A stretch of 64,000 nucleotides of DNA, taken from Hyphomicrobiales bacterium (GTDB lineage Bacteria; Pseudomonadota; Alphaproteobacteria; Rhizobiales; JACESI01). Both the position numbers and the translations under genes were made by a program. Under the pieces are notes generated by a model, which did no database searches, was not told the DNA's origin, and was given only the letters and a program-made list of their open reading frames with translations. How positions within the stretch are numbered: position 1 is the stretch's first letter; every line of letters begins with the position of its first letter. Location of the stretch: assembly GCA_039964305.1 (NCBI GenBank), contig JBDVXS010000103.1:281-64280 (forward strand), read 5' to 3'. This document shows positions 26,777-54,781 of this stretch, piece after piece.

Positions 26777-27580
26777 CTATAATTCAGCGCCAAGCCGAAA
26801 CGAAATTTTCTTCGATATATCCTTGATGTTTTGAATAACCGTTGCTTCACCAATTTCTTCAATGGCATCTGTTGATAGGCTCACGGCAACGCCGGCAATT
26901 GGCTTGTTATTAGAGTTCAGTACAGTGACCCCATAACAGACCATACCCAGTTTGACCTGTTCACAATCAACTGAATGACCTTGAGCGCGAATGACGGCTA
27001 ATTCATCAATCAATGTATCCAGATCTTGAACGCTGTTGTCGGTAAGAGGTTTGGGGAAAGTCGTCCCGATGAGACGGCGCACGTCGCTTTCGGACATATA
27101 ACTCAAAAAAGATTTGCCAGTTGCAGTGAACACGGCAGGCAATCTCATCCCTATCCGAAAATCATAACCCACTGACAATTCCGAGTTCCGTGCCGCGATA
27201 TAAACGACTTCACTGCCCTCTAAGACGGACAACGTAATTGTAGCACCTGGTAAGCTACTACCTTCGTCCCAGATTGTGGCGAACTCTGTTGCGACGTCAG
27301 ATTCATAGGTGAACCGATTCGCCCATCGCATAATGTGAGGCCCTAATTGATAGGTCTGATCAGGCTTCTTTAGCAGCAGGTTTAGTTCAGTCAACGTTAC
27401 GCAAATTCCGTGGACGCTGCTCTTCGCAATTCCAATTTCCTCTGCAATTTCAGTGATATTGAGAGTTTTTTGTGACTTTGCAACAATGTCTAAAACGTTT
27501 GCGCCTTTAACAAGTGCTGGTACCAGTTTTGGTTTTTTATCTGGTTCCTGCACGCCCATTTTTCTCTTTATCCGATCCAC
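26777..27580 (-). CDS. attJ: IclR-family regulator, BlcR/AttJ-like (alternative start ATG 27559)
   Basis: VPALVKG...IAKSSVHG HTH, LGPHIMRWAN, EGSEVVYIAARNS and FRIGMRLPAVFTATGK closely parallel Agrobacterium BlcR as recalled. Divergent from an attM-like gene. Confidence 0.8.
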   Translation of the reverse strand: MDRIKRKMGVQEPDKKPKLVPALVKGANVLDIVAKSQKTLNITEIAEEIGIAKSSVHGICVTLTELNLLLKKPDQTYQLGPHIMRWANRFTYESDVATEFATIWDEGSSLPGATITLSVLEGSEVVYIAARNSELSVGYDFRIGMRLPAVFTATGKSFLSYMSESDVRRLIGTTFPKPLTDNSVQDLDTLIDELAVIRAQGHSVDCEQVKLGMVCYGVTVLNSNNKPIAGVAVSLSTDAIEEIGEATVIQNIKDISKKISFRLGAEL

Positions 27581-27706: not shown

Positions 27707-27841
27707 AATTGTTTGGAGGAGAGCAGGCGTTGCAAACAAACAAAGATTTGAATCCTGCTTTGGTGGGCGGTAGCCTATGCTTAGTGGGTGCTGAGCTATT
27801 CAATTTCACTCTTCCAAGCGCAGCAGGAACTGGGACAGACG

Positions 27842-28225
27842 ATGACTGTTAGTGACTGGGCCGTAAAATTCAGTGAAGCCTCTGATCAAAATAAAACGAT
27901 CGCCGCCATGGCGCGTTATTTCACCTGCACCTACATGCTCGATATGGAGCACGAAAAGGTCATTGTCGAAATGATCGATGGTAAAGTCTACCGTATGAAC
28001 ATAACGCCCGGTGGCATGGATGCTTACGATTTTGCGCTACGCGCCAGTGCGCAAACATGGCGCGAATTTGCCCAGGCAGTTCCCAAGCCAATGTTCCATG
28101 GGATCTGGTCAGCGAGTTTTCGCAAAGATTTGACGATTGAAGGGAATACGCTTGTTCTTATGCAGAACCTGCGCAATTTCACGGTGCAGTTTGAACTGCT
28201 TCGCAAGGTAGGGGTGCCGGTATGA
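27842..28225 (+). CDS. Hypothetical protein, probable SCP2 (sterol carrier)-like fold
   Basis: 127 aa. The pattern YDFALRASAQTWREF...LTIEGNTLVLMQNL resembles SCP2-like domains. Confidence 0.55.
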   Translation: MTVSDWAVKFSEASDQNKTIAAMARYFTCTYMLDMEHEKVIVEMIDGKVYRMNITPGGMDAYDFALRASAQTWREFAQAVPKPMFHGIWSASFRKDLTIEGNTLVLMQNLRNFTVQFELLRKVGVPV

Positions 28226-28265: not shown

Positions 28266-29120
28266 ATGGTAAAACACTCACCAGTAACTGGACGGTATGT
28301 AACATTCGATGTCGATGGGTGTGAATACAAAGTTTTCTATCTTCAAAATGGTAGCGGAACACCGTTAGTCTGTCAGCACACTGCAGGTTGTCATAACCAT
28401 CAATGGCGAGACCTGCTCGAAGATGAAGAATTCACATCGCGCTACAACGTCATCGCCTATGACCTACCTCGACACGGCAAATCCGATCCGCCCCACAACA
28501 AGAAATGGTGGGAAGAGGAATATCGTTTAACAGCCGATCATTTTGTCAATTTCATTGTGAAGCTTTGTGACGCATTGGAACTCGACAATCCAATTTTCAT
28601 GGGTTCCTCGTTTGGGGGCAATGTAGCGCTTCAACTTGCGCTAAGACATCCAGATCGTTTTAGAGCTGTCATTCCAGTTGAAGCTGCCTCGCATGCTCCT
28701 GGTTTCTTCCTTGATCTATGGAGACATCCCCATGCAAACGCTGCACAAGTTTGTGCCAGTGGTGTTTGGGATCTCATGGCCCCTCAGAGTCCTGAAAAGG
28801 ATCGTTGGCTCACTTGGCATTATTATACCCAAGGGTCAGAGGCGTTTAAGGGCGACCTTTATTTTTACTCCGTTGACCACAACATCACGGATCAACTTTC
28901 CCAGATCGATACCAAAAGGTGTCCCGTCATTATGATGACAGGCACTTACGATTATTTGACGCCGCCTGAAGCGACTGAAGAAACGGCTCGGAATATTCCT
29001 GGTGGCATCTACATTGAAATGGAAGATATCGGGCACTTCCCGATGAGCGAAAACCATGCATTGTTTAGAGAGTATCTGCGCGAAGCCCTGAGAATTATTG
29101 AAGATCGCACTGATGCCTGA
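28266..29120 (+). CDS. Alpha/beta-fold hydrolase
   Basis: YDLPRHGKS, nucleophile elbow GSSFGG, acid (GTYD) and catalytic His in IGHFPMSEN. Confidence 0.9.
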   Translation: MVKHSPVTGRYVTFDVDGCEYKVFYLQNGSGTPLVCQHTAGCHNHQWRDLLEDEEFTSRYNVIAYDLPRHGKSDPPHNKKWWEEEYRLTADHFVNFIVKLCDALELDNPIFMGSSFGGNVALQLALRHPDRFRAVIPVEAASHAPGFFLDLWRHPHANAAQVCASGVWDLMAPQSPEKDRWLTWHYYTQGSEAFKGDLYFYSVDHNITDQLSQIDTKRCPVIMMTGTYDYLTPPEATEETARNIPGGIYIEMEDIGHFPMSENHALFREYLREALRIIEDRTDA

Positions 29121-29153
29121 TTACTTGGTAACTGAATATAATAAGAAAGCTTG

Positions 29154-30083
29154 ATGATGAAGATTCTTGAATTTAATGACCAAGGCCTACAAGTAGAGCG
29201 TGATTCAAACGCTGTGCGGCATATGGGTTCAAGTAGCCACCTAGCGCCTGCGCCTAATATCCGTGCTCGGACCCAACCGACATCAAACTCACCTTCTGAT
29301 ATTCAGTTGTTCATGTTCCAAACAGGAACACTTCGAACCAAAACTAAATATATCAAAATGAACCAAGGAGAGGAAGATTTCGAAATTCCAGTGCCGTGGT
29401 TCTTGATCAAGCACCCAAAGGGTAACGTTGTTATCGACGGTGGAAACGCTGTTGAGACTGCAATGGACAAACGCGGTCACTGGGGAGCTGTTGTTGATGC
29501 TTATGACCCAGTCATGAATGTCAAAGACAATTGCGTTGATCAATGTCGTTCAGTTGGTGTTGAGCCTGAAGATGTGAGCTATGTGATGCAATCGCATTTG
29601 CATCTCGATCATTCCGGTGCCATTGGCCGTTTTCGTAAGGCACAGCATATCGTTCAAAGAATTGAATATGATTATGCGTTTAACCCAGACTGGTTTTCTG
29701 CGGGTGCGTATATAAGAGCTGACTTTGATCGTCCGGGTCTTGATTGGAAGTTCTTGGGTGGTGAGTATACTGATAATTATGATCTCTATGGTGATGGCAC
29801 CATACGAATGATTTTCACGCCGGGTCATTCGCCTGGTCATCAGTCCTTTTTGATCACCCTTCCCAATACAGGGCCCGTGCTGCTTACGATTGATGCTGCC
29901 TACACCCTTGATCACTGGGAAGACAAAGCTCTTCCAGGTCTTGTATGTTCATCGGTAGATGCGGCTCGTTCTGTCGCAAAATTGCATAAAATTGCACAAG
30001 ATACCGGGGCTTTAGTCGTTACTGGCCATGATCCAGTGCATTGGAACACGTTTAGAAAAGCTCCACACAGTTTCTACGATTAA
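29154..30083 (+). CDS. attM: N-acyl-homoserine lactone/gamma-butyrolactone lactonase, AttM (BlcC) type (start uncertain)
   Basis: SHLHLDHSG (HxHxDH), TPGHSPGHQS, LTIDAAYTLDHW and TGHDP. N-terminal IKMNQG...EIPVPWFLI...VIDGGNA...RGHWG follows Agrobacterium AttM as recalled. Confidence 0.9.
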   Translation: MMKILEFNDQGLQVERDSNAVRHMGSSSHLAPAPNIRARTQPTSNSPSDIQLFMFQTGTLRTKTKYIKMNQGEEDFEIPVPWFLIKHPKGNVVIDGGNAVETAMDKRGHWGAVVDAYDPVMNVKDNCVDQCRSVGVEPEDVSYVMQSHLHLDHSGAIGRFRKAQHIVQRIEYDYAFNPDWFSAGAYIRADFDRPGLDWKFLGGEYTDNYDLYGDGTIRMIFTPGHSPGHQSFLITLPNTGPVLLTIDAAYTLDHWEDKALPGLVCSSVDAARSVAKLHKIAQDTGALVVTGHDPVHWNTFRKAPHSFYD

Positions 30084-30182
30084 GACCCTAAAGTGAGCCG
30101 GAGGAGCCTGGCTTGTGAAGCCTGTGCCGTAAATGGCGCAAGAAATACCAACCTAAAATTGACTAAAACTGAGGAGGAAGTA

Positions 30183-31352
30183 ATGAGAATTTTAAGAAAA
30201 TTAACGATGGCATTGAGCGGGTTAGCTCTGTGCGCGACTGGCGCGATAGCAGGAGGATTGGACGATATTGATCCAGAGGTGCGTGAGCGTCTTTATAATC
30301 CAGAAATGCTTGACCCAGCTCAGCCGATTGAAGCGAGCATTTACAAGGATTTTGTGGCTAAGAATCCGCCACCTTGGAAAATTGGATATGCAAGCTCATA
30401 TGCTGGCAACACTTGGCGTGCAGGTGCGATGTCGCAATTGCAAGACGTGATCATTCCTAAATGGAAAAAATTGGGCTTGATCTCTGAAGTTGTTGTGACC
30501 CAGTCAAACCTTAAAGATGCAACACAAATCCAACAAATGCGTCAACTTGTTGATCAAGGTGTCGATGCCGTCATCGTATGTTGCTCAAACCCAACTGCGC
30601 TCAACCAGACTGTTAAATATGCTTACGACAAGGGTGTTCCAACATTCTCACTCACTGGCTATTTGACATCAGAATATGCGGTTAATTCATCTGTAAACTA
30701 TCAGCTTGCAGGATTTGAAATCGGCAAATGGATGGCGAAGGAAATTGGCGGTAAAGGTAATGTGCTTGTTGTAGAGGGCATTCCTGGAACATCTGCTTCC
30801 GATAGTCAGGATCGCGGTGTTAAGGCTGGTCTGGCAACAGCAGAAGGCATTAATGTTGTTGGTTCAATCGCTGGCATGTGGACCGATCAGGTCGCTCAAG
30901 GTGAAGTGCAAAAATGGCTTTCAACACACCCAGGAAAACTAGACGGCGTTGTGGTTCAATCTGCCGCTGAAATGGGTGTATTGCGCGCGCTTGCTCAATC
31001 CGGTCGTGCTGACGTTCCAGTTGCAATCGGTGGTGAACTCGGTGCGTTGTGCCATTGGCGCAAAAACCCAGATTACATTTCTAGTGCGATCCAAACATGG
31101 CCGCCACAAGATGAGATGGAACTAATCTGGGACATCATGATGCGTACTTTGCAGGGTCAAGGTCCTAAAGTTCAATCTATCATGGTTGATCCTGTGACCG
31201 TAACTTTTGAAGATCTGAAAAATGTTATGGATGAAAGCTGCGATCCAAACACACCTAACTGGCTTCCAGTTGGTAAAGATCGTTGGGGTAGCTCTGCTTT
31301 CCTAGATGGCTTCTTCTACAAGCCTGCTGATCCAACAAAATACAAACGCTAA
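30183..31352 (+). CDS. ABC transporter periplasmic substrate-binding protein (sugar/CUT2 type)
   Basis: Signal peptide, QIQQMRQLVDQGVDAVIV and GKGNVLVVEGIPGTSAS. Strong GAGGAGG RBS. Confidence 0.9.
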   Translation: MRILRKLTMALSGLALCATGAIAGGLDDIDPEVRERLYNPEMLDPAQPIEASIYKDFVAKNPPPWKIGYASSYAGNTWRAGAMSQLQDVIIPKWKKLGLISEVVVTQSNLKDATQIQQMRQLVDQGVDAVIVCCSNPTALNQTVKYAYDKGVPTFSLTGYLTSEYAVNSSVNYQLAGFEIGKWMAKEIGGKGNVLVVEGIPGTSASDSQDRGVKAGLATAEGINVVGSIAGMWTDQVAQGEVQKWLSTHPGKLDGVVVQSAAEMGVLRALAQSGRADVPVAIGGELGALCHWRKNPDYISSAIQTWPPQDEMELIWDIMMRTLQGQGPKVQSIMVDPVTVTFEDLKNVMDESCDPNTPNWLPVGKDRWGSSAFLDGFFYKPADPTKYKR

Positions 31353-31363
31353 GTAAACGAAAA

Positions 31364-31390
31364 CCGGGCTGCCTGTGATGGGCAGTCCGG
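31364..31390 (+). other. Intercistronic stem-loop without a U-tract
   Basis: ccgggctgcct-gtgat-gggcagtccgg between the SBP and ATPase genes, a typical position for an mRNA-stabilising hairpin. Confidence 0.55.
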
Positions 31391-31408
31391 ATCGTATAAG
31401 GGTAAGTT

Positions 31409-33175
31409 TTGTCGCAATCTCAACCATCTCAGCCAGCTACATCCGTCGCGCAGAACACGATTTCTGTGGTCGATGTATACAAATTTTTTGGGCCGACACG
31501 CGCGCTCAATGGCTGTAGCTTCTCTGCACGGATGGGCGAAATACATGCCATCGTCGGCGGTAATGGTTGTGGTAAAAGCACAATGGCTAAGATCGTCTCT
31601 GGCGTATTACCCATTGATAAAGGACAAGTCTCCATCTTAGGAGAAACACCATCGACACCGGGTGAATCCCGAGCGATTGGTATCTCAACAGTTTACCAGG
31701 AAGTTCTTGTTGCCGACGAAAGTACAGTTGTCGATAACCTCTTCATGGGAACAGATGATCTGTTTTCTTCGACTTTACCATTCAATGAAAAAGTCCAGCG
31801 CGCTGCTAAAATGATGCGCGAATTGGCAGGGGAAGAAGTCGACCCCCATGCACTCGTAGGCACATTGCCACTTGGCATTAAACAATGGATTACTATCGGG
31901 CGAGGGCTCCTTCAAGTCCCCCGAATTCTCATTCTTGATGAATCATCAGCCGCTTTGGATTTTGATAGCACTGAACGGCTTTTTGATAAGATGCGAGAAC
32001 TAAGAGACGGTGGCACAACTGTTCTCATTGTGACGCACAGAATTGCAGAACTCATCCGCATATCAGACCGAGCGACCGTCCTGAGAGATGGCAAAGATGT
32101 TGGTGTTCTGGAGAAGGAAGAGATTACTGAAAAGAATTTGCTCGCTTTGATGACAGGCGAAGACCAAGACGACAATCATGCTGAATTTAAGGCCCCCATT
32201 CCAGTCGATGACAGCGTTGTCATGCAGGCTCACGGCCTTCAAATTTGGCCAGATGCTGAAAGCGTAGACTTCGAACTTCTAAAAGGTGAGATCGTAGGGA
32301 TCGCTGGTCTTGATGGCCAAGGACAAGATGAATTTGTGCGGGTTCTGGCTGGTGTGCAACTGGCAGAAAAAGGGCTTGTTTATTCATCCGACAATGCGGG
32401 GGTGTTTCATCCTATCCAGTCTCTTCGCGAAGCTGTGAAAGCTAAAATTGCCTATGTTTCTGGAGATCGGAAACGGGAAGGTATTTTCGCTTCACTAAGC
32501 ATCTTTGAAAACATGTCTATGCCACTTTATCGCGAGAAAACACGTGGTGGTTTTTTCGGGTTCATTGATTGGGTAAGCCTGAAAACAATTTTCACACGAG
32601 AGACTGAAAACTTACTTATTAAGTTTGGCCTTGCTGATGACAAGATCACGTCTCTTTCGGGTGGTAATCAGCAGAAAGTGCTTATTGGTCGTGGCTTCGC
32701 CATGCGACCTGATATTATCGTCTTGAATGACCCCGCGCGGGGCATCGATGTGGGGGCGAAGACTGAACTCTACAAACACCTAAGGACGTTTGCCGAATCT
32801 GGAAAATCTGTGATTTATTTATCTTCCGAATTGGAAGAATTTATCGGCTTCGCCACCCGCGTTATCGTTTTTCGAAACGGCAGTCCCTTTGATGCCTTTG
32901 CGGGGGAACAGGTTGAACAAAAACGTATTCTTGAAGCCATGTTCGGTCAAACAGATCGTCTTGGATTAAAGGGGCTTTCTTCTGAAGCCCTACAGCCGAA
33001 CTCGAGTGAAAACCCTCCTTTGCAGCCTCAAGATATTGAGAGCACAGACGTATCAAATCCAGATCAAGACAACGTTGTTTCATTTGCTACAGATGATACT
33101 GCAGCCACTAAACGACTAGACATCAAGATTGTCGAATTCGATGCTCACAAAAACAAAAAACGGTCAGCGCTATGA
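31409..33175 (+). CDS. Sugar-type ABC transporter ATP-binding protein (two fused NBDs)
   Basis: GGNGCGKS Walker A, LILDE, GDRKREG, LSGGNQQKV and DPARGIDVGAK. Confidence 0.92.
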   Translation: MSQSQPSQPATSVAQNTISVVDVYKFFGPTRALNGCSFSARMGEIHAIVGGNGCGKSTMAKIVSGVLPIDKGQVSILGETPSTPGESRAIGISTVYQEVLVADESTVVDNLFMGTDDLFSSTLPFNEKVQRAAKMMRELAGEEVDPHALVGTLPLGIKQWITIGRGLLQVPRILILDESSAALDFDSTERLFDKMRELRDGGTTVLIVTHRIAELIRISDRATVLRDGKDVGVLEKEEITEKNLLALMTGEDQDDNHAEFKAPIPVDDSVVMQAHGLQIWPDAESVDFELLKGEIVGIAGLDGQGQDEFVRVLAGVQLAEKGLVYSSDNAGVFHPIQSLREAVKAKIAYVSGDRKREGIFASLSIFENMSMPLYREKTRGGFFGFIDWVSLKTIFTRETENLLIKFGLADDKITSLSGGNQQKVLIGRGFAMRPDIIVLNDPARGIDVGAKTELYKHLRTFAESGKSVIYLSSELEEFIGFATRVIVFRNGSPFDAFAGEQVEQKRILEAMFGQTDRLGLKGLSSEALQPNSSENPPLQPQDIESTDVSNPDQDNVVSFATDDTAATKRLDIKIVEFDAHKNKKRSAL

Positions 33176-34584
33176 CCGATGTGACAGCAAGCACAATTCC
33201 AACTCAAGCTGAAAATGATGAAGTTAGCTCTGGCAGCGGAACAACGCCTTATTTGTTGATGCCAATTACCGTTCTGTTTGTGCTTTTGATCATTGCAGTC
33301 ATCAGATCTCCATCTCTCATGACAAGCTCAGGAATTGGCGCTGCAATTATTGTTTCAGCCCCTCTCATTCTTGCAACCTATGCTCTTATGACAAGCGTAA
33401 CGGCAGGCCGGGGCACTGTGGATTTAGCCATTGGCCCTCTAATCGGCTTCATCAATGTTTCTGTTATCCAGCTTACTGCCGCCGAGGTGATAGGGTCTCC
33501 AATCTCTGTTTTCATTTTTGCGATTGGCCTTGGCATTGCTTATCAAGTCTTGATGGCTGCGATTGTGATTTATGTACGGGTCCAACCAATAATCGTATCG
33601 CTCAGTGGCTTTCTAGCGCTATCAGGCATAAACCTTGTCATTCTGCCCCGACCTGGAGGCCTTGCACCTGAATGGATGCAAAGCTGGGGTGCAGGCATTG
33701 ATATTATTTCGCCTGTTTTGGTGATCCTTGTGGTGGCAACACTTGCATGGTTGCTTTTCACACAAACAGCTTTCTACACTCATTTGAGACTGATGGGATC
33801 AGATGAGAGGGCGGCCTATACCAGTGGCGTTCCAATCACGACCGTTCGTTTTGGCGCCCATGCGATTGCAGGCGTATTCGCCGGATTGTCAGCCATTACG
33901 TATACGGCTTTGATTAGCTCAGGAGATCCCAGCCAAGGAACGACCTACACACTCATTGCTGTAACAGCACTCGTACTAGGCGGCACTTCGCTCGCGGGCG
34001 GACGCGGCACGGTTATGGGGTCTTTATTTGGTGCGCTTAATCTATATTTGATTACCTATGTGCTTGCGACATTCAACTTTGGCGCTGTTCAAAGCTTTGT
34101 AACTGACCTTGCTTACGGCACAATCTTGGTTGTCTCTTTGCTGCTAACAATCGCTCTGCCGTTCATCCAACGGCACATCCGAAACTTCTCACCGTTACTC
34201 TATTTTGTTGTGCTGTCAGTTGTTGTCTTCGGTGTTATTTTGCATACGACATTTGATTACACGGCATTAGAGGCAGCGACAGATACGGCGAAGCAAGCAC
34301 TCCCTGCAATCAATTTTGCAGCGCCCCTTGAAGTGGTGCAACTGAGTGACAGTGACATTGAGTATAGCTCATTTGCACAACCGCTCATCTATGCAGCAAT
34401 TCTAATTATTGCGCTGCCAATTTTGTTGCGGGTGATTTTTTCGAACTCAGATTTTCGCAACATTGGACTTCTGGTCGCAATCTTCGTCACATCCATGCTG
34501 TTGATGTCAGGTTATTTTTTGACCCAAAATTCTGCTTCCTCCCAAGCACCATCCCTCCCAAGCTCCAATTCGGGAGCAAGCTAA
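33172..34584 (+). CDS. ABC transporter permease (RbsC-like) with C-terminal membrane extension
   Basis: VDLAIG, GSDERAAYTSGV and LVLGGTSLAGGRG. ATGA overlap with the ATPase gene. Confidence 0.88.
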   Translation: MTDVTASTIPTQAENDEVSSGSGTTPYLLMPITVLFVLLIIAVIRSPSLMTSSGIGAAIIVSAPLILATYALMTSVTAGRGTVDLAIGPLIGFINVSVIQLTAAEVIGSPISVFIFAIGLGIAYQVLMAAIVIYVRVQPIIVSLSGFLALSGINLVILPRPGGLAPEWMQSWGAGIDIISPVLVILVVATLAWLLFTQTAFYTHLRLMGSDERAAYTSGVPITTVRFGAHAIAGVFAGLSAITYTALISSGDPSQGTTYTLIAVTALVLGGTSLAGGRGTVMGSLFGALNLYLITYVLATFNFGAVQSFVTDLAYGTILVVSLLLTIALPFIQRHIRNFSPLLYFVVLSVVVFGVILHTTFDYTALEAATDTAKQALPAINFAAPLEVVQLSDSDIEYSSFAQPLIYAAILIIALPILLRVIFSNSDFRNIGLLVAIFVTSMLLMSGYFLTQNSASSQAPSLPSSNSGAS

Positions 34585-35964
34585 TTGAGTAATTCTGCAT
34601 CAACACATAAAACGGGCACTTTGCTAACACGCCTTATTGGTTTGGTTTTGGCACTAGGCATAACGGCGATCGGTGTGGTGGTTGGCTTGGTTCAAGGACA
34701 GCCTATCCAGCAAGTCATTTTGTTTGCTGTCGCAACCCTTGCTGGTTCGGCTTGGGCTTGGCAGTTTTTTGTCAAACAGTTTGATAGTCATGGCGACGAA
34801 AATCAGGAAACTGAGGGGCCAGGTGAACTTTACCAAGCATGGTTGAAGTATCGCTTAGGGTTTTTTGGATTTTTGATCTTAGCATTGTTATTTGTGACGC
34901 TTTCTCTGACCGTGGAAGGTTTCTTCAATATTTGGAACGTGATTTCAGCTCTCATCTTGTTGCTGATCATTGTTTTGACGATGACGGTTGGGAAATTTGT
35001 TTCTGAAAACAAAAGCGCATTTATCGGCTTGATGGTGTTGATCGGTCTGTTTTCAATTGGAGCGATGAACATCGAAGGGTTTTCATCAACTAACAATATC
35101 AAATCGATGTTGCTCTTTGCGTCATTTCTTGGCTTGGCATGTATCGGTCAAACACTTGTATCGCTGGTTGGTGGTCTCGATCTTTCAATCCCATTCGTTA
35201 TTGGTTCAGCCAATGTGGGGATGTTGTATCTCATCAGCCTCGGCGTTCCACCGTGGTTAGCACTCGTAATCACGTTGTTCGTTGGAATGCTTATTGGCTT
35301 GATAAATGGTTTTCTTAGCTTCCGCCTTCAGGGCCAAGCGCTCATTATGACGCTGGGAACTGGGTTCGCAGTTTCTGGGGGCATCCAAATAATCACGTCG
35401 ATTGGAACGGCCTATGGCGGCAATGTTTTTGCTACAGTTCCAAGCTGGCTTAGCAACTTAGCAGCCTTAAATGGATCATTTTTTGGAATTCCCATTCCAC
35501 CAGTAATCGCCATTTGGATCATCATCGCGGTAGTGCTGATCGTTGGTATGCGGCATACCGTTTTTGGCCGCTATCTATATGCACTCGGTGTAAACCGTAC
35601 GTCTGCAAAACGCGTGTCGATTTCAGAACGCATCTATTGGGTTTCCGTCTACACGCTCAGCGGATTTTTCTCAGCGCTAACGGGCATCTTTCTCCTTGGT
35701 TGGAGCGGCGGCGGTTTCATTGGCGTTGGGGATAGTTATTTGTTTATGACCCTTGCTGCCGTGGTTGTTGGTGGGACGTCCTTATTAGGTGGCATCGGTG
35801 GATACGGCTTCACTGTGATTGGCGTTTTGGTTCTTCAAGTCCTGACATCATTTTTGGTCGGCATCGGACTGAACCACGAATGGCAGCAATTTATCTTCGG
35901 ATTACTAATCCTCCCAATGGTCGCACTTTATGCGCGTTCCCCGCACATCAGAACCCAAATTTAG
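34585..35964 (+). CDS. ABC transporter permease (RbsC-like) with N-terminal membrane extension
   Basis: GQTLVSLVGGLDLS, FGRYLYALGVN and AAVVVGGTSLLGGIG. Confidence 0.88.
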   Translation: MSNSASTHKTGTLLTRLIGLVLALGITAIGVVVGLVQGQPIQQVILFAVATLAGSAWAWQFFVKQFDSHGDENQETEGPGELYQAWLKYRLGFFGFLILALLFVTLSLTVEGFFNIWNVISALILLLIIVLTMTVGKFVSENKSAFIGLMVLIGLFSIGAMNIEGFSSTNNIKSMLLFASFLGLACIGQTLVSLVGGLDLSIPFVIGSANVGMLYLISLGVPPWLALVITLFVGMLIGLINGFLSFRLQGQALIMTLGTGFAVSGGIQIITSIGTAYGGNVFATVPSWLSNLAALNGSFFGIPIPPVIAIWIIIAVVLIVGMRHTVFGRYLYALGVNRTSAKRVSISERIYWVSVYTLSGFFSALTGIFLLGWSGGGFIGVGDSYLFMTLAAVVVGGTSLLGGIGGYGFTVIGVLVLQVLTSFLVGIGLNHEWQQFIFGLLILPMVALYARSPHIRTQI

Positions 35965-36016
35965 AAAGCGACAAGCAATTGACACAAGAACAAGCCAAAT
36001 CAAGACAGGGGAAAAA

Positions 36017-36724
36017 ATGACCCATCCGGTTATGCAAACAATAGATCTTACAGGTGCGAGTTACTCTGCAGCCCTGTTGGGAATGGTAGCAACAACTGTA
36101 TTGCTTCTCATCGGCTCCGCTTGGGTGCGTGGTGGTTGGAAATTACCGGTCACTCTATGCGGTCTGGCAACTCTTGTTGGGGTGTTCGCACTCTATGAAT
36201 CGAAAGCTGTTTGGCTTTCAAGTTCACAGGTTCCACTGGTCTATCACTATGTAGGCTGGATCATATCCATGCCCCTACAGGTTATCGCACTCTTCTTCTT
36301 TGCCCGTCAGATGGGGCCAGTATCTTCTGCCCTGTTTTGGCGCTTATTGGTTGTCACTGTTTTGATGGTGCTGTTTCGTTATTTGGGAGAAGCTGGGTTC
36401 GTTCACGCAACGTTGGCATTCCTTATCGGCATTGTTTTCTGGCTATACATTCTCGGCGAGATATTTTTCGGACAAATGGAAGAGGCTGTAACAAAAAGCC
36501 TCAACGCGCCAGTACAGCGTGGGTATTTCTGGCTGCGGTTGATTGTGACTGTTGGTTGGGCCGTTTACCCATTGGCCAATTTCATCATCAGTTTTAGTGG
36601 TCATGTTGATACTGGCGGCATGAGCGTCGCTTACAACCTGACAGAATTTTTAAACAGAATAACGTTCGGGATCATCATTCTCTCAACGGCTGTTTTAGCC
36701 TCGAAAGGATCATCCGATGAATAA
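36017..36724 (+). CDS. Proteorhodopsin-family (type 1) opsin lacking the retinal-binding lysine
   Basis: 235 aa with seven hydrophobic helices co-linear with proteorhodopsin (PR): WKLPVTLCGL, PLVYHYVGWIISMPLQ (PR: PTVFRYIDWLLTVPL), YLGEAG, GWAVYP and YNLTEFLNRITFG (PR: YNLADFVNKILFG). Confidence 0.88.
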   Translation: MTHPVMQTIDLTGASYSAALLGMVATTVLLLIGSAWVRGGWKLPVTLCGLATLVGVFALYESKAVWLSSSQVPLVYHYVGWIISMPLQVIALFFFARQMGPVSSALFWRLLVVTVLMVLFRYLGEAGFVHATLAFLIGIVFWLYILGEIFFGQMEEAVTKSLNAPVQRGYFWLRLIVTVGWAVYPLANFIISFSGHVDTGGMSVAYNLTEFLNRITFGIIILSTAVLASKGSSDE

Positions 36725-36784: not shown

Positions 36785-38482
36785 ATGAACGGTGCCAATA
36801 TCATTGCAATTATTATTCTGGCGGCGATCGTTATTGCGGTTCTTGCCTACCTTCTTCACTGGCTGTACCGCCACTCAACAAAGGATGTATCCTTTGTGCG
36901 AACCGGTTTTCTTGGTGAAAAAATCGTCATGGGTGGTGGCGCGTTAGTCCTACCAATCGTCCACGACCTTACCGAAGTAAACATGAATACACTGCGTCTG
37001 GAAGTAACAAGATCGCGGCAGAAATCATTGATTACTAAGGATCGGATGCGTATCGAGTTGGAAGTTGAATTCTACGTGCGTGTGATACCGACAATTGAAG
37101 CTGTCTCAACAGCCGCACGTACCCTTGGCAATAGAACAACAAATCCAGAAAGCTTGCGCGATCTCATTCAAGGCCGCTTTGTCGATGCTATGGGCGCCGT
37201 TGCTGCGTCGATGGCTATGGAGGAAATACACGAGAACCGGTCTGCCTTTATCAAGAAAATTAAAGAGGAAGTGGCCGACAACCTCACGCTCAATGGGCTT
37301 GAACTAGAAACCATCTCTCTAACAACATTGGATCAAGCTGATATTTCGCTTTTCAATCCTTCAAATGCGTTTGACGCGGAAGGTCTTACACGTCTGACAG
37401 AAGAGATCGAGAAGCGTAAGAAAAAGCGTAATGACATTGAACAAGATACGATGATCGCGGTTCGCAAGAAGAACCTTGAAGCTGAGAAGATGGCTTTGGA
37501 TATCGAACGGGAAAGTGAATACGCGAAATTGGCCGAAGATAGCGAAGTGGCCATTCGTAGAGCTGAGCAAAAAGCTGAAGTAGAGCTCATGAACGCGGCA
37601 AAAGAACGCGAAATTGAAATTGCCCGTTTGAAGGAACGCGAAGAGGTGGAAACCAGCCGCATCCAAATGGAGCAATCACTTGAAACAATCGAAATCAAGC
37701 GACAGGAAAATCTGGCGCTAGAGGAACAAGCACGCGAAATTGCAATTTCAGAAAAATCTAAAAAACGTTCCCTTGCACAATCTGAAGCGGAAAAAGCCCG
37801 TGGTAAAATGCTGGAAGAGAGCGAGAAGGCGCAAACAGTGCGTGATACCGAAATTGCAAATCGACGCAAACAGGTTGAGCTGATCGAAGCTGCAAAAGAA
37901 GCCGAACGCGGTGCAATTGTTACCAAGGTGAATGCTGAGGCTGAAAAAACCGCAGCCAAAGATCTGGCTGAAGCGGATGGAATTGCCGTTAAAGCTCTCA
38001 AAGAACGCCTTGCAATTGAAGCCGACGGGAAACGGGCGCTCAATGAAGCTGAAAACCTGCGCACGGACGCTAGTCGCAAATCTGCTCTCCATCAAAAATT
38101 GGTCGAGAACCTTCCTGAAATCATCCGCGAGAGCGTCAAACCAATGGAGAATATCGATGAAATCAAAATTCTTCATGTTGAAGGCCTTCCAGGTTTAGCA
38201 GCAGGCAATTCAGATGGCTCTTCAGCTGGTGATGGGCAAGGCAAATCAGGTGATGGAAACCTTGCCGATCAAGTCGTGAATTCCGCATTGCGATATCGCT
38301 CGCAGGCTCCCTTTGTCGATACATTGCTAGGAGAGATCGGAATGAGCGGAGAAAACGTGCATCGTATGGAAGGTCTGCAAGACTTGTCTAAGATCGTTTA
38401 CACCGAGCCTGGCGCTGCTGAAACATCCAGTAAGCCCAAAGCTGCTTCGCCCAAAACAGCGGCAACAAAGCCCAAAAAATAA
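36785..38482 (+). CDS. Flotillin/SPFH-family protein (YqiK-like)
   Basis: N-terminal TM, FVRTG...GGALVLPIVH, LITKDRMR SPFH core, FNPSNAFDAEGLT, long AEA-rich coiled coil, and C-terminal LPEIIRESVKPMENIDEIKIL and SALRYRSQAP. Confidence 0.92.
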   Translation: MNGANIIAIIILAAIVIAVLAYLLHWLYRHSTKDVSFVRTGFLGEKIVMGGGALVLPIVHDLTEVNMNTLRLEVTRSRQKSLITKDRMRIELEVEFYVRVIPTIEAVSTAARTLGNRTTNPESLRDLIQGRFVDAMGAVAASMAMEEIHENRSAFIKKIKEEVADNLTLNGLELETISLTTLDQADISLFNPSNAFDAEGLTRLTEEIEKRKKKRNDIEQDTMIAVRKKNLEAEKMALDIERESEYAKLAEDSEVAIRRAEQKAEVELMNAAKEREIEIARLKEREEVETSRIQMEQSLETIEIKRQENLALEEQAREIAISEKSKKRSLAQSEAEKARGKMLEESEKAQTVRDTEIANRRKQVELIEAAKEAERGAIVTKVNAEAEKTAAKDLAEADGIAVKALKERLAIEADGKRALNEAENLRTDASRKSALHQKLVENLPEIIRESVKPMENIDEIKILHVEGLPGLAAGNSDGSSAGDGQGKSGDGNLADQVVNSALRYRSQAPFVDTLLGEIGMSGENVHRMEGLQDLSKIVYTEPGAAETSSKPKAASPKTAATKPKK

Positions 38483-38547: not shown

Positions 38548-38973
38548 TTGAGCCTTACAACAAAGATTGAACGAGAAGTTGTCGTGATTAGCAGCTGGAC
38601 TGTGTTCGGAATTTTAGGACTTGGCTTCCTTCTTGAAGGTGGTGTCCGTGATAACTTCTTGATCGGTGTTTTTGGAATAGGTGTCTTGGTGGTGGGCTTC
38701 TTGTGCCACCTTGTCGCGAATTATGTTTTTAAGCAGAGCTTTTCCAAGGGTGAAGTGGCGCTGGGTTTAGGCGTGTTTGTTACGTCAACAATTGTATTCA
38801 TTGTTGGTTGGCTTGCGGGTTCGCTCTCTGAAACAAGTTTTTTCATTGGGTTGACCGCACTCTCAATTATCGTTGCTGGGTTCATTGTTAATCTGACCAC
38901 CCGGTATGGGGTTAGTGGTGCGTTTCATAAATTCGACGTCTCTGCAAAGTCTCATTCGAGGCATCGAAAATGA
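38548..38973 (+). CDS. Small integral membrane protein (about 4 TM)
   Basis: AAGGAGG RBS before TTG, four hydrophobic segments and ATGA overlap with the symporter gene. Confidence 0.75.
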   Translation: MSLTTKIEREVVVISSWTVFGILGLGFLLEGGVRDNFLIGVFGIGVLVVGFLCHLVANYVFKQSFSKGEVALGLGVFVTSTIVFIVGWLAGSLSETSFFIGLTALSIIVAGFIVNLTTRYGVSGAFHKFDVSAKSHSRHRK

Positions 38974-40925
38974 GCCTGCTTGATCCTGTAATATGGCTAT
39001 TTCTTCTCTTGTTGTTTTATGGATTGATTTCTCTTTATTGGGCCCGATCAGCGTCCCTTTACAATCAATCAGAAGCTGATTTTTTCACAGCAGGCGGATC
39101 TCTTGCACCTTGGATGATGGCGCTTGGCCTTACAGGGGCCAGTATTTCTGCATGGATCATGCTGGGCTTTCCAAAGGCCATCGCCAATCAAGGTCTAGGT
39201 TTTGCAGTTCTTGCCCTTGCCGGAGTCGTCATCCCCCTGACAGGCGTGCTCTTCTTAAAGCCGCAATGGGCCATCGCCAAACGTCATGGGTATTCTAGTC
39301 AGGGTGAGATGTTGAATGCCTATTTCGGCGGCAAAGCAATCGGCATTCTTTCTGCAGGGGTTGCGTTGTTGATTGCTATCGGGTTCTCAGGAATCCAACT
39401 TCGTGCTGTCTCTCAATTGCTGGCTAACCTCTCTGGCAGTGCAGATCTATTTCCTCAATATGTCTTGGGAATAGCGTTTCTGGTTGCGGCCTACCTTATC
39501 ATCGGTGGGATGAGAGCTGTTGGATACCTCGGCGTATTGCAGACCGTTTTAATTGGCCTCACTCTAGCTGGATTAGGGCTTTTTGTTCTCATCACGCAGG
39601 GCGGGTTAGAACCAATCAGCCAAGCGTTAGGTGTTCTTGCTCAAAATCCAGATTCAATTTCTAAGGGATTGTTTGAGATTGCTGGGGTCATCCAATTTAC
39701 TGCCGGACATGGGGTTGACGATTCAATAACAAGTCAGTGGACCGCGATGATGATATTCAGCACCGCGCTTGCATTGATGGGTATCCAAGCAAGTCCAATG
39801 ATCACCCAATTGGTCATTGCTACACGCAATTCAAAAGGAATTGCAGCTGGACAGACATGGGTATTTGCAGGCTTTTTTGGCGCTCTTTTGGTCGGAGCCG
39901 TTGTTTTAATTGGTGTCACGGGAATTGGAAAAGGCGGAAATCCAATTGCGGACCTACTGGCAATCCTCTCAGAAAGTTCTCCTTGGTTCATGGCCATTGG
40001 TGCACTGGGATTTCTCGCCGCATTGCAACTCGTGATGGGTTTGAGTGTTCTCACCGCTGCAAACGCTGTGATCAAAGATGTCTACAAACCGTTTTTCCAT
40101 AAAGGCCTTTCAAGCAAGGACGAGTTGTTATTTGCCAGAGTCCTAATGGGACTTCTTATTCTCGCTGCAGCCTTGTTGGCTCTCCTAGGGCCATTTGTCC
40201 TGTCAGCGCTCAGTTCTGTAGCCCTACCAGCAGCCTTCCAATTATGGCCAGCCTTACTCGGTTTATGTTGGGTTAAATTTATAACAAGACAAGCTGTCTT
40301 AGCGGGCGCGGTGCTCGGACTGTTTGCTGTTTTTGTTACGGATACAGTCGGCATTCGCATGTTAGAATTCGTAGGCCTTGATTTGCCTTGGGGGCGGTGG
40401 CCTTGGACTATCCATTCTGCTGGATGGGGTATCTTCTTCAATGTGTTGGCTGTTCTTGTAATCTCCGCCATCACACAAGGGCGAGGGCATGCAAATATTG
40501 CTCCAGATATACGCAGCTTTTTGCGAACTTACATGAAACCTAAAGTTCAAAGCCGTGCACTAAAGCCTACTGCTTGGTCTGCGGTTCTTGCTTGGTTTTT
40601 CTTGGCTATTGGTCCCGGTGCTGTTCTTGGTAACACCGCATTCGGCAAGCCTTCTGAAGGCTTTGAAGTATGGATGATTGGCGTTCCATCTATTTGGGCG
40701 TGGACAATTCTATTTTGGGTTTTGGGTGTGTTTCTGGTTTGGTTCCTTTCATACAAAATGGAACTTGCATCAGAATCTGACGTTCAATTTACCCCAATCG
40801 AAGCCCTTCCCACGGCCACTATTCGAGACACTAAAATTCAAAAAGAAGAAGTGTTGCGTTTGGCATGGACGATTTCTGCAATCGCAACAATCATAACATT
40901 AACAACCTGGACATTTGGCTCGTGA
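38970..40925 (+). CDS. Sodium:solute symporter (SSS) family transporter
   Basis: DFFTAGGSL...ASISAWIMLGFP, YLIIGGMRAVGYLGVLQ and more than 13 TM segments. Confidence 0.82.
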   Translation: MSLLDPVIWLFLLLLFYGLISLYWARSASLYNQSEADFFTAGGSLAPWMMALGLTGASISAWIMLGFPKAIANQGLGFAVLALAGVVIPLTGVLFLKPQWAIAKRHGYSSQGEMLNAYFGGKAIGILSAGVALLIAIGFSGIQLRAVSQLLANLSGSADLFPQYVLGIAFLVAAYLIIGGMRAVGYLGVLQTVLIGLTLAGLGLFVLITQGGLEPISQALGVLAQNPDSISKGLFEIAGVIQFTAGHGVDDSITSQWTAMMIFSTALALMGIQASPMITQLVIATRNSKGIAAGQTWVFAGFFGALLVGAVVLIGVTGIGKGGNPIADLLAILSESSPWFMAIGALGFLAALQLVMGLSVLTAANAVIKDVYKPFFHKGLSSKDELLFARVLMGLLILAAALLALLGPFVLSALSSVALPAAFQLWPALLGLCWVKFITRQAVLAGAVLGLFAVFVTDTVGIRMLEFVGLDLPWGRWPWTIHSAGWGIFFNVLAVLVISAITQGRGHANIAPDIRSFLRTYMKPKVQSRALKPTAWSAVLAWFFLAIGPGAVLGNTAFGKPSEGFEVWMIGVPSIWAWTILFWVLGVFLVWFLSYKMELASESDVQFTPIEALPTATIRDTKIQKEEVLRLAWTISAIATIITLTTWTFGS

Positions 40926-40942
40926 GCCAAGAAAGAGACCCT

Positions 40943-42100
40943 ATGCCCCCCTTTATTTTCAATACAACAGCCAGCGTTAGATTTGGCGCAGGTTTGATGT
41001 CGCAGCTTGGCGAAATGGTAAAGGCCAGTATTGGGACACGTATTTTGCTGGTGACAGACCCTGGCATGATGACAACTGGTATTGTCGACAAAGCTTTGGA
41101 CATATTAAAAGCCGCTGGTGTTGATGTGGCGTTGTTCAAAGATGTTGAATCTGATCCCTCAGAGCAAGTCGTGCTCGCATGCGCCCAAGCGGCCATCGAC
41201 CATGGATCACAGGGGGTCGTTGGACTTGGTGGTGGATCATCCTTGGATGTTGCGAAACTGGCGGCCTTGCTTGCAACGGGCAATGAAAAGCTTACGGATG
41301 CTTATGGTGTCGGCAATGCAAAGGGACCACGCTTGCCGTTAATTCTTGTGCCAACAACCTCTGGTACAGGCTCGGAAGTGACGCCTATTTCGATTGTTAC
41401 CACGGGCACCAATGAAAAAATGGGTGTCGTCTCACCCGTGATTATTCCAGATATAGCCTTGCTTGACCCAGAACTAACTTTGGGACTGCCATCACACATC
41501 ACAGCGGCAACAGGCATTGATGCCATGGTACATGCGATTGAGGCCTACGCCTCTGCTAGTGCCAACAATAATCCAATCTCTCGCATGTTGGCAGAAAAAG
41601 CACTTCAGTTGATGGGGCCTTCGCTTTTGGCGGTTGTTAATGATGGATCGGCTATTGAAAGCCGTTCCGCTATGTTGTTGGGATCAATGTTGGCAGGCCA
41701 AGCGTTTGCCAACTCACCGGTCGCGGCCGTTCATGCATTAGCCTATCCACTTGGTGGCCATTTCCATATTCCGCATGGGCTTTCTAATGCTCTCGTGTTG
41801 CCCCACGTTTTGCGCTTCAATTGCGTAGTCGCTCCGCAACCTTATGCGGAATTGGCACCGTTTGCTTTTCCTGAATTGGCAAAATTAGAGGGCCAAGAAC
41901 GCGCAAGCGCCTTTTGCGATTCTTTGGCTGACCTCTCGCAAAAATGTGGCCTTCAGCAAAGTCTCAAAGAAATGGGCATCCCAAGAGAAACCCTTCCCAA
42001 GCTTGCAAGCGATGCGATGAACCAAACGCGTCTTCTCGTAAACAATCCGCGTGAAGTTAAACTAGCCGACGCATTGGCAATCTATGAAGCTGCCTACTAA
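40943..42100 (+). CDS. attL: Iron-containing alcohol dehydrogenase, AttL/BlcB (4-hydroxybutyrate dehydrogenase)-like
   Basis: GLGGGSSLD, PTTSGTGSEVT, GIDAMVHAIE, AFANSPVAAVHALAYPLGGHFHIPHGLSN and QTRLLVNNP. Confidence 0.82.
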   Translation: MPPFIFNTTASVRFGAGLMSQLGEMVKASIGTRILLVTDPGMMTTGIVDKALDILKAAGVDVALFKDVESDPSEQVVLACAQAAIDHGSQGVVGLGGGSSLDVAKLAALLATGNEKLTDAYGVGNAKGPRLPLILVPTTSGTGSEVTPISIVTTGTNEKMGVVSPVIIPDIALLDPELTLGLPSHITAATGIDAMVHAIEAYASASANNNPISRMLAEKALQLMGPSLLAVVNDGSAIESRSAMLLGSMLAGQAFANSPVAAVHALAYPLGGHFHIPHGLSNALVLPHVLRFNCVVAPQPYAELAPFAFPELAKLEGQERASAFCDSLADLSQKCGLQQSLKEMGIPRETLPKLASDAMNQTRLLVNNPREVKLADALAIYEAAY

Positions 42101-43212: not shown

Positions 43213-43451
43213 CGCTGACAGAAATTGTTCTTGGTGACAGTTCTCGATGGTGCGTTGATATGAGGTTTTCAAGAGGTACTTGATATAAACTATTGAACTT
43301 AAGAATAAATCTAGGATGTAGTCAGTATTTTTTAAATACTGGCAAGTTTGACGCCTAATAGTTGGTATTGAGTTTTTCAATGAATTAGGGGTTTGTTAGC
43401 CATCTTGATGCTATTTTCTTGGGAGCTGGGTTTTTTGTGGGTGTATTGAGT

Positions 43452-53192: not shown

Positions 53193-53331
53193 CAGAAGTA
53201 ACGATCAAAAATAACGGTGTATTACACATTGTTGCTGTAGTAAAAATTCAAAAAATATGTAAATTGACGTGGTATTTCTCTTTCTTATTCAGAGAATATG
53301 ATTCTTGTCGTGGGCGACCTAGAATAGGTGT

Positions 53332-54693
53332 GTGGCTATGTTACGGGTGAGCAAAATTGTTGGGCTTGTTTTAAGCTCTGCGTTTTTTATGGGGAGTCAT
53401 GCCGCTCAAGCTGAGAGCTTGCGGGATGTGGTGAGAGAAGTTCTGACCGATAACCCAGAAATTGTAGGCCTTGCTCTCAACCGAGCAGCCATTGAACAAG
53501 AAGAACGCCAAGCTAAAGGGCTCAAACGTCCAAATGTTGAACTTTTTGGCGGTGTTGGTGTTGGTCGTGATGATCGTAATTTTGTCCGCGATGGTGCCCG
53601 TGTTCAAGGTGATGTGGGCGTTTCACTGACGCAAAAGCTGTTTGATGGCTTTGAATCCAAAAACCGCGTTATTCGCCAAAAAGCACGCGGCGCATCGGCT
53701 AGAAGTCGTGTGAAAGATGCCTCCAACATTGTATCGCTGCAGGTTGTGCGCGCGTTTTTAGAAGCACGTCGTGCGCATTCTATTGCTGCATTGGCCCGCC
53801 AAAATGTGAGTGCGCATAAGCGCATCGTTGGTCAAGTTCGCCAAAGCGCGAATGCCGGTCGCGGAACGAACACGCAAGTGCAGCAGGCTTTGGCTCAGCT
53901 TGAACAAGCTCGCATTGATCTTGAAAGTGCTGAACTTCAAATTTTAGATGCTCGCACAGCGTTTTTTGCCGTTGTTGGTCGTGCGCCTGGCAAGTTGCAT
54001 AAGGTGAGGGTGCCATCTACCCATTTCCCACATTCTGTAAAGGATGCGGTAGCGCTTGCGACATCACAATCACCGGCTGTGCAAGCGCGTGTGTTTGACG
54101 CTGATGCAGCACTTTCTGCTGTTAAAGTTGCCAAAGCAGATCGTTTGCCAAAAGTGGACCTTGAGGCTTCAGTCTTTGAAACCTTTAACGAAACACCAGG
54201 TTCAAGTGGTCCTGACTTTGATGCGCAGGCTCTGGTTCGTTTGCGCTATAAACTCTACGGTGGTGGGATCAATCGTTCGCGCAGACGTGAGGCTGAAATT
54301 CGGGCTGCGGAAGCGCGTAACGAGGTCGAAATAACCAAACGCACCATTGCCCGCGATGTTCGCCTTGCTTATGGCCAAACCACAACAGCAAAACGACGCG
54401 TCGCACTGATGCGCAGTAAAGCGAGCCGTGCGAGCCGTATCTTGCCAGATTATGTGGCGCAGTTTGATGCTGGTCGTCGATCTTTGCTTGATGTGTTGGA
54501 TATTCAAAACGACATCTTCGTCAACCGTTCCGCTGCAACATCGGAAGAATTTACCGCGAAGTTCAATCGCTTCCGTATTCTGGCGTTGAGTGGCAAGTTG
54601 GTCCAATCGCTTGGTGTGCAATTGCCAAAGCCTGCAACACAAACCTTCCATTTGACTGTAGAAGACGTAGATGCTTGGGAAAGTCTGAGATAG
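53332..54693 (+). CDS. TolC-family outer membrane protein (LapE-like)
   Basis: Signal peptide, LTQKLFDGF, LPKVDLEAS and QFDAGRRSLLDVLD. Confidence 0.92.
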   Translation: MAMLRVSKIVGLVLSSAFFMGSHAAQAESLRDVVREVLTDNPEIVGLALNRAAIEQEERQAKGLKRPNVELFGGVGVGRDDRNFVRDGARVQGDVGVSLTQKLFDGFESKNRVIRQKARGASARSRVKDASNIVSLQVVRAFLEARRAHSIAALARQNVSAHKRIVGQVRQSANAGRGTNTQVQQALAQLEQARIDLESAELQILDARTAFFAVVGRAPGKLHKVRVPSTHFPHSVKDAVALATSQSPAVQARVFDADAALSAVKVAKADRLPKVDLEASVFETFNETPGSSGPDFDAQALVRLRYKLYGGGINRSRRREAEIRAAEARNEVEITKRTIARDVRLAYGQTTTAKRRVALMRSKASRASRILPDYVAQFDAGRRSLLDVLDIQNDIFVNRSAATSEEFTAKFNRFRILALSGKLVQSLGVQLPKPATQTFHLTVEDVDAWESLR

Positions 54694-54781
54694 TCTCTAA
54701 GTTTTATTCCATTTTACATGAGTAAATTCCGTTAGGGTAAGTAAACTCTTAACCGCTCTGCGCTATCTTAATCTTGAGTTT

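Follow-up and report, generated by a model that had tools for sequence, protein, structure and literature searches.

The window, i.e. the whole stretch of 64,000 nucleotides analysed here from a Hyphomicrobiales bacterium (assembly GCA_039964305.1, contig JBDVXS010000103.1), carries the gene of a flotillin-associated rhodopsin (FArhodopsin, FAR) within a 13-gene cassette. The gene order is IclR regulator, SCP2-like protein, hydrolase, AttM lactonase, ABC importer (four genes), opsin, flotillin, small membrane protein, symporter and iron-containing alcohol dehydrogenase (Fe-ADH). Positions of genes and of the opsin residues discussed are in Table 1.

Table 1. Genes of the cassette and selected sites of the opsin, with positions in the window
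Feature	Position	Strand	Basis
IclR-family regulator, divergent, BlcR-like	26777..27580	-	PF01614; best PDB match BlcR 3MQ0, E=1.7e-53
SCP2-like small protein, counterpart of SAR11 FAR-cluster gene cds04	27788..28225	+	Atlas look-alikes named SCP2; by-eye match to sequence in Table S2 of PMC10308929
Alpha/beta hydrolase, cassette marker	28266..29120	+	PF00561
AttM/BlcC-family lactonase, true start probably later	29151..30083	+	NF045700, 439.9 bits, cut-off 390
Sugar-type ABC importer, four genes	30093..35964	+	PF13407, PF00005, PF02653 twice
Importer binding protein	30093..31352	+	Pfam
Importer ATPase	31409..33175	+	Pfam
Importer permeases	33172..34584, 34585..35964	+	Pfam
Lys-less FArhodopsin, 235 aa, seven transmembrane helices	36017..36724	+	PF01036, 9R21 alignment, AlphaFold2, Foldseek
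Helix C: H77, G80, S84, M85, Q88, A91 replacing R-D-T-V-(L/Q)-E	36245..36289	+	Alignment
Arg121, helix D, PsFAR E120/proteorhodopsin Gly position (beta-ionone site)	36377..36379	+	9R21 alignment
Glu125, possible i+4 partner of Arg121	36389..36391	+	Acid in 118/119 among the matches listed
Glu210 (PsFAR D209 counterion), likely ion-pair partner of Arg214	36644..36646	+	Acid kept with Arg214 among the listed homologues
Arg214, codon AGA, at Schiff-base Lys site (PsFAR K213)	36656..36658	+	9R21 alignment
Flotillin (Band_7 + Flot), 60 bases 3′ of opsin	36785..38482	+	PF15975, PF01145
Small hydrophobic protein overlapping symporter start	38548..38973	+	Conserved position
Sodium:solute symporter	38970..40925	+	PF00474, E=1e-16
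Iron-containing alcohol dehydrogenase, likely start 40943; candidate 4-hydroxybutyrate dehydrogenase	40865..42100	+	PF00465

A Pfam search gave no match for the SCP2-like open reading frame, and no family was found for the small hydrophobic protein in Pfam, NCBIfam or Atlas; from its position, the latter is possibly the small subunit of the symporter. The Fe-ADH falls under every named NCBIfam cut-off, and comparison of the importer binding protein and the hydrolase with the PDB returned distant matches only. The ABC importer genes are counterparts of those marked for 'All' FAR clusters in Table S2 of PMC10308929. Pfam detected no transducer or kinase gene in the cassette, and no NfeD-like partner among the cassette reading frames scanned. 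Promoter-like sites in the window number 14 (23 expected) and terminator-like sites 26 (19 +/- 5 expected), counts that are not informative. Four RNA runs contributed 0 reads, which says nothing on expression.

A CitE/HpcH-type lyase gene (PF03328, 42361-43212), not seen in the related loci compared, lies 260 bases after the Fe-ADH gene, where many relatives have SSADH. Farther along, at 43419-58401, there is a repeat protein of 3257 aa that is rich in Asp/Thr and has Gly/Asp repeats towards its C-terminus. The reading frames after it are, by eye, TolC-, ABC- and HlyD-like; together these are presumably a type I-secreted giant adhesin system. A second, longer flotillin, 48% identical to that of the cassette, is found on another contig of the genome (G000:C37:2-2863). 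No rhodopsin accompanies it, the contig start hides its upstream region, and by eye the reading frames that follow resemble cyclase-fold proteins and a molybdenum hydroxylase cluster.

The opsin reading frame is intact and full length, as a sequence-only reading of this DNA had stated, and the ribosome-binding site (AGGGG, 36007-36011) is five bases 5′ of the ATG. A Pfam search, a check which that reading had proposed, matched the protein to PF01036 well above the cut-off (E=2.8e-19; 69.9 bits, cut-off 24.6). The best PDB sequence match is PsFAR (9R21, E=2e-48), with proteorhodopsins (PRs) next. The AlphaFold2 model (pLDDT 87.7) has seven membrane helices, and Foldseek ranks 9R23/9R21 at the top (TM 0.94), with PsPR at 0.89 and green PR at 0.86; 8CNK is the fourth fold match.

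Helix C reads HYVGWIISMPLQVIA and helix G NLTEFLNR. The alignment with 9R21 is without gaps, has an offset of 1 and agrees with the residue numbering of the structure paper. Sites correspond, opsin to PsFAR, as A58=F57 (the His site of PR), H77=R76, G80=D79, S84=T83, M85=H84, Q88=Q87, A91=M90, R121=E120, E210=D209 and R214=K213. The alignment bears out every residue call of the sequence-only reading, i.e. Arg encoded by AGA at the Schiff-base site, G-S-A in helix C, His at the R94 site, Ala at the His75 site and Glu at the D227 site. Arg121 was absent from its remarks. Features of a proton-pumping PR are missing, with R214 in place of the Schiff-base Lys, G-S-A in place of DTE, A58 in place of His, and no blh in the genome. 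From the loss of the Lys and the pump residues, the protein would neither bind retinal covalently nor pump protons, in keeping with the earlier prediction.

Assignment to the FArhodopsins is based on several properties. The type-1 rhodopsin fold is nearest to PR/FAR (PF01036; 9R21 at the top by both sequence and fold), the flotillin gene is directly 3′ on the same strand after a 60-base gap, and genes for an ABC importer, a symporter, an SCP2-like protein and a hydrolase are close by. On the tree the opsin is on the FAR side, away from the DTE proteorhodopsins, and it shares motifs with rows in Table S4 of Haro-Moreno 2023 (PMC10308929). The genome contains no PR paralogue; the published account states such a paralogue for marine FARs but not for Lys-less ones, and it is hence not defining for this branch. 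Failure to bind retinal, a pentameric state and co-transcription with flotillin, all of them bench properties, also count among the traits of the family. The structure paper states that all FARs have an aromatic residue at the PsFAR H84 position, where this opsin has Met85; the Arg-branch rows shown in Table S4 also have Met there, and therefore the published family includes such members. The opsin does not belong with Rh-noK, as it is related to PR/FAR by sequence and fold and is the single rhodopsin gene in its genome. It is a flotillin-associated rhodopsin of an Arg branch that is already present in the published supplement.

As AGA is one base from the Lys codon AAA, Arg214 could in principle reflect a sequencing error or a decaying proteorhodopsin. 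The codon is without difference in Logan contigs of three sequencing runs from three studies (X2, X5 and X8, of which X2 is perhaps the source study); a contig of a fourth run, a macroalgae metagenome, covers 615 bases of the opsin gene with five differences and ends 5′ of the Arg214 codon. CGN codons specify Arg214 in 19 of 21 distinct Arg-type genome loci. Among strain differences in the opsin gene 19 of 22 are synonymous, and dN/dS is 0.010-0.156 in 14 of the 15 pairs, one pair being saturated. These values are as low as those of the cassette enzymes; in seven pairs the opsin never exceeds 0.08, and in two of these it is the lowest of the 13 cassette genes. The opsin gene is under strong purifying selection, which supports the selected function that the sequence-only reading had assumed. 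Codon coverage, CGN usage, the synonymous bias and dN/dS of at most 0.16 refute error and decay, and we give them practically no weight.

A protein search found 559 relatives, of which 120 were listed, and 119 were analysed with the query left out. Position 214 among these listed matches is Arg in 110, Leu in six, and Gln, Ser and Cys in one each; none has Lys. By contrast with this variation, Arg121 is present in 119/119 of the listed homologues. It is also found in all 26 scorable Lys-less metagenome matches and in all 29 Lys-less genome loci, and by eye in all 30 rows compared from Table S4 of Haro-Moreno 2023. Among the matches listed, an acid at 210, four residues before 214, is found in 110/110 rows with Arg214 and in three of the nine non-Arg rows; five of the six losses of this acid share one Ala/Leu pattern and probably have one origin. 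That the acid tracks Arg214 fits a putative internal ion pair. Position 125 is acidic in 118/119 of the listed matches; FARs that lack Arg121 have Ala, Ser or Thr there, and proteorhodopsins, too, have Glu. Counts for helix C in the same 119 listed matches are H77 112, G80 118, S84 117, M85 104 (with I in seven, L in five and F in one at this position), Q88 102 and A91 117. The pocket wall (W81, M117, W142, W181, Y184 and P185) is invariant in all 119 matches listed, which fits a kept fold. Sister Lys-less branches from metagenomes have L, Q, V or E at 214 with flanking genes alike.

A tree of 53 rows, from which the trait columns had been removed, splits the PR rows from all FAR rows at 100/100 and places the opsin with the FARs; the sequence-only reading had called for such a phylogeny. 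The Arg121 group forms one side of a 100/100 branch. On this tree a single change each accounts for Arg121 and for the loss of Lys, but the Arg and non-Arg states of position 214 require six. A grouping of all Arg214 rows as one clade is rejected (p-AU 3e-29); the losses of Arg214 are independent. The sequence-only reading had proposed that Arg214 mimics the protonated Schiff base and holds an anionic ligand. Since Arg214 is replaced independently by L, Q, S or C in nine of the 119 listed homologues, the part that concerns this residue is weakened; the ligand itself is weighed below, and for any such model Arg121 would be the better candidate. That Arg121 is older than the loss of Lys is only suggested, by one row (L061) that has both.

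This FAR (L061, G553:C8), which keeps the Lys, and three others that have Arg121 with Gln at the Lys site (L138, L140 and L141) may be intermediate stages on the way out of retinal chemistry; some of the four keep an acid at the D97 site. Two long-branch rhodopsins (P0176 and P0227) keep the Lys, but their D97/T101 sites read Glu-Ala.

Linkage of the opsin to its neighbours is stable. The cassette order is the same in nine of 13 genome loci compared; of the other four, two are without the first three genes, one is rearranged and without the Fe-ADH, and one is cut short. The order also recurs on three plasmids, and FARs of the Arg branch are found on plasmids of Martelella sp. AD-3, M. lutilitoris, Hoeflea sp. 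IMCC20628 and Pararhizobium gei. A survey of 401 genomes of the window's order gave 30 with a match: 10 Arg-type, eight Leu-type and one Lys-type FAR, and 11 of PR type. All 19 FAR loci have a flotillin 3′ and an ABC permease 5′, as opposed to 0/11 PR-type loci. Close homologues of the hydrolase (at least 82% identity) are present in 11 of the 401 genomes, all FAR-bearing; weaker ones (39-46%) occur in 32 more, of which 24 have no FAR. From 555 metagenome loci 80 were kept, 27 of them Lys-less, and a flotillin follows the opsin in all 26 of the Lys-less loci with room to tell. Hosts of the Arg branch are alphaproteobacterial genomes of 2.6-7.5 Mb plus plasmids, and Arg-type hosts include soil strains and a plant strain. 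The opsin gene is present in only one of five other genomes of the genus; the cassette is therefore patchy and probably mobile. A sample of 401 genomes of the phylum has FARs only in the present genome and in G380, a result that says nothing on other classes.

The gene content points to catabolism of a lactone. An AttM/BlcC lactonase is combined with a BlcR-type repressor, as in the BlcR-blcABC system; of the 4-hydroxybutyrate dehydrogenase and SSADH that belong to that operon, the Fe-ADH lies under the named cut-offs, and SSADH is found above cut-off after the Fe-ADH in nine of 29 loci examined and within 6 kb in nine of 27 Lys-less metagenome loci. The window has no SSADH adjacent to the cassette, and the copy of this genome is on another contig. 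In Agrobacterium the route is described as running from butyrolactone to 4-hydroxybutyrate, succinic semialdehyde and succinate (PMC3907764). By its genes, the cassette is likely one of BlcR/AttM-type lactone import and catabolism: a lactone or ester would be imported, AttM would open the lactone, the Fe-ADH and SSADH would lead to succinate, and the BlcR-like repressor would control the process. The cassette is predicted to make C4 carboxylates. Three Leu-type FAR cassettes (L094, L095 and L104) continue with CoA-transferase, acyl-CoA dehydrogenase and PrpD-like genes in place of Fe-ADH/SSADH, which suggests a different substrate.

The opsin is the only rhodopsin of a genome that is 98.55% complete, as found by a genome search and an unfiltered six-frame HMM search. 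A genome-wide search revealed no blh, which extends to the whole genome the absence that the sequence-only reading had noted in the window; no full-length lycopene cyclase and no RPE65-type oxygenase were found in the genome either. Heliorhodopsin had no matches in this genome, in a search where no positive control matched. All 22 Arg-type genomes (this one, 12 and nine others) have a single PF01036 gene, a count that draws in part on a set of 13 genomes for which completeness is not given and that does not take in the chromosomes of the plasmid-bearing strains. blh was present in none of nine Arg-type genomes as against seven of 11 PR-type genomes, and in one of 12 further Arg-type genomes (G012), as a partial match at a contig edge. 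Three squalene/phytoene-synthase-type genes occur in the genome, an adjacent pair (G000:C108:20530-22199), which may serve hopanoid synthesis, and a separate one (C56:24828-25589). Lys-bearing FARs in 3-5 Mb alphaproteobacterial genomes can also be without a second rhodopsin (L045 in G056, L062 in G725 and L065 in G477). In two of these (L062 and L065) the E120 site is Ala, the conserved Trp of helix E is replaced by Gly, and the H84 site is Val or Ala; their pocket may therefore be open.

We put at about even the chances that the protein is a light-blind, self-plugged opsin and the putative membrane partner of the adjacent flotillin for the cassette transporters. PsFAR is reported to bind no retinal even with its Lys, as H84 and E120 fill the pocket (bioRxiv 10.1101/2025.04.29.651185). 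By analogy with the PsFAR structure, Arg121 would fill the beta-ionone site as E120 does, Arg214 would fill the Schiff-base site paired with Glu210, and the changes of Asp to Gly80 and of Arg to His77 would make room, so that the empty retinal pocket would be plugged by the protein itself. In the simplest reading, Arg214 may replace the Schiff base as the counter-charge of Glu210. According to PMC2636767, the usual operon companion of a prokaryotic flotillin is an NfeD-like protein; as no such gene was found among the cassette reading frames scanned, the opsin may take this partner slot. It may bind flotillin and help place or stabilise the cassette transporters. The membership in the FAR family, the loss of the Lys, Asp, Thr, Glu and His residues, the selection, the status as sole rhodopsin and the fixed linkage to flotillin, ABC importer and symporter favour this proposal. 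Against it, those who solved the PsFAR structure noted nothing in it that was obviously adapted to bind flotillin (bioRxiv 10.1101/2025.04.29.651185).

Two other explanations keep a role for light, and both are very improbable. According to the published FAR hypothesis, the protein would form mixed oligomers with a true proteorhodopsin and modulate it in dim light. The marine FARs of SAR11, HIMB59 and Pseudothioglobus, as described, always occur with a PR paralogue; two rhodopsins are present in G699 and G793, and G012 has the partial blh. The Leu-type FAR genome G324 (L047, L097) goes against the pattern of sole rhodopsins, since its chromosome carries blh and two more rhodopsin genes at other places. 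PF01036 recovers two rhodopsins in G699 and three in G324, which served as controls, yet every one of the 22 Arg-type genomes is without a second match and, with the small genomes G699 and G793 set aside, so are 33 of the 34 FAR genomes searched in this way; soil and plant strains are among the hosts. The hypothesis is thus largely refuted for the Arg branch. A photoreceptor that holds retinal non-covalently, or some other chromophore, would account for the aromatic cage residues being invariant among the matches listed. It has to reckon with the missing Lys, with a genome that lacks a retinal pathway, and with Arg at the beta-ionone site, where in the published PsFAR structure a Glu already helps to block retinal.

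A chemical role is easier to entertain. The former retinal pocket might bind a small carboxylate (4-hydroxybutyrate, succinate or a fatty acid) via Arg121 and Arg214, the opsin being a ligand-gated regulator or accessory subunit of the cassette transporters. There is a precedent, as retinal-free green proteorhodopsin is described with decanoate bound at this place and salt-bridged to the Schiff-base Lys (PMC11322631; 8CNK). In addition, the site is less negative now that the D97-equivalent acid is gone and two Arg have been added, C4 carboxylates are the predicted products of the cassette, and the centre of the pocket is Met rather than His or Phe. Met85 (104/119 among the matches listed) is smaller than the His or Phe described for marine FARs, and a cavity may therefore remain; the invariant Arg121 would suit a bound ligand no less than a plug. 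On the other side are the repeated loss of Arg214, the L, Q, V or E at this site in sister branches with the same flanking genes, and the acid four residues from each Arg, although for Arg121 the pairing is weak evidence because Glu125 is also found in proteorhodopsins. Moreover, neither a transducer nor a kinase gene was detected in the cassette, which already includes a soluble regulator, the IclR protein. Because the decanoate precedent is real and Met85 may leave room, we consider carboxylate binding unlikely but well worth keeping in mind. Somewhat less probable is the wider notion that the Arg121-branch FARs are opsins repurposed from light to chemistry, as carboxylate-binding membrane proteins that control lactone or hydroxy-acid uptake in a flotillin domain. 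If true, the role of retinal-less opsins becomes testable by genetics, in culturable rhizobial and marine strains and without a retinal system. A light-independent role in lipid handling, as scramblase or organiser of microdomain lipids together with flotillin and the SCP2-like protein, has clearly lower odds again. The presence of these two genes in the cassette, the three squalene/phytoene-synthase-type genes and the light-independent scramblase activity reported for a proteorhodopsin (PMC10730872) speak for it, but no specific sequence feature points to it, and it explains neither why Arg121 is invariant nor why the opsin is strictly linked to one catabolic cassette.

The FArhodopsin family and its Lys-to-Arg branch are already published (PMC10308929). 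In the literature searched, no prior report was found of an Arg-type FAR as the only rhodopsin, of a FAR in a conserved 13-gene BlcR/AttM-type cassette that is also on plasmids of named strains, or of Arg121 as an invariant residue; Fig. S5 of the structure preprint, an alignment, may bear on the last. According to the structure paper, all FAR producers are uncultivated (bioRxiv 10.1101/2025.04.29.651185). With the Arg branch on plasmids of named strains, one tight cassette and a guessable pathway, knock-out and ligand tests become practical. As no proteorhodopsin accompanies this branch in the genomes searched, it argues against the dim-light hypothesis for these proteins. The gene thus gives a handle on the question of FAR function, and Arg121 is the residue to study.

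Among known systems close to the opsin are the Lys-less freshwater FArhodopsins, in which Q, T, L or R is reported to replace the Lys and a flotillin gene adjoins (Haro-Moreno 2023, PMC10308929). Three rows of its Table S4 (Tobar13m-C806, 3300037189-C1948575 and 3300032296-C687603) show the same helix C motifs (HYVGW, SMPLQ), the helix D Arg and NR in helix G. The Arg-branch rows are given there as 'freshwater unknown taxon' contigs for which the paralogue status is not determinable, whereas the Arg branch described here is alphaproteobacterial and has a sole rhodopsin.

The Rh-noK, as the FAR papers describe them, are also microbial opsins without the retinal Lys, but they are xanthorhodopsin-related, their genes lie in tandem with that of a working pump, and they can pump again once the Lys is restored; the present opsin is PR-related, has no second rhodopsin beside it in the genome, and has lost the acceptor and donor acids as well. 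Retinal-free green proteorhodopsin with decanoate (8CNK, PMC11322631) has the same fold, and its structure shows that a carboxylate can lodge at the Schiff-base residue when the pocket is empty; in that protein, however, the two pocket ends are still Lys and Gly, and the ligand is described as a retinal placeholder. PsFAR of Pseudothioglobus (9R21, 9R23) resembles the opsin in the link to flotillin, the lack of a proton donor and a charged residue in the beta-ionone site. In the published description it keeps K213, D79, R76 and T83, its pocket is blocked by H84 together with E120, and a PR paralogue accompanies it, whereas the opsin here has R214, G80, H77, S84, M85 and R121, and no PR.

Two known gene clusters resemble the cassette. 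Agrobacterium blcR-blcABC (attJ-attKLM) shares the BlcR-like IclR regulator, the AttM-family lactonase and the Fe-ADH, and SSADH in many relatives; the cassette has in addition two transporters, the hydrolase, SCP2, opsin and flotillin, and its Fe-ADH is only a candidate BlcB orthologue, the SSADH of this genome being on another contig. The SAR11/HIMB59 FAR cluster, as given in Table S2 of PMC10308929, has in common the SCP2-like protein, the alpha/beta hydrolase, an AHL-lactonase-type enzyme, the Fe-ADH, the symporter and the ABC importer. The window cassette lacks the dimethylformamidase-like, PxpA-like and biotin-carboxylase genes of the loci L102 and L103; relative to the SAR11/HIMB59 cluster it has the BlcR-like IclR regulator and, in many relatives, SSADH.
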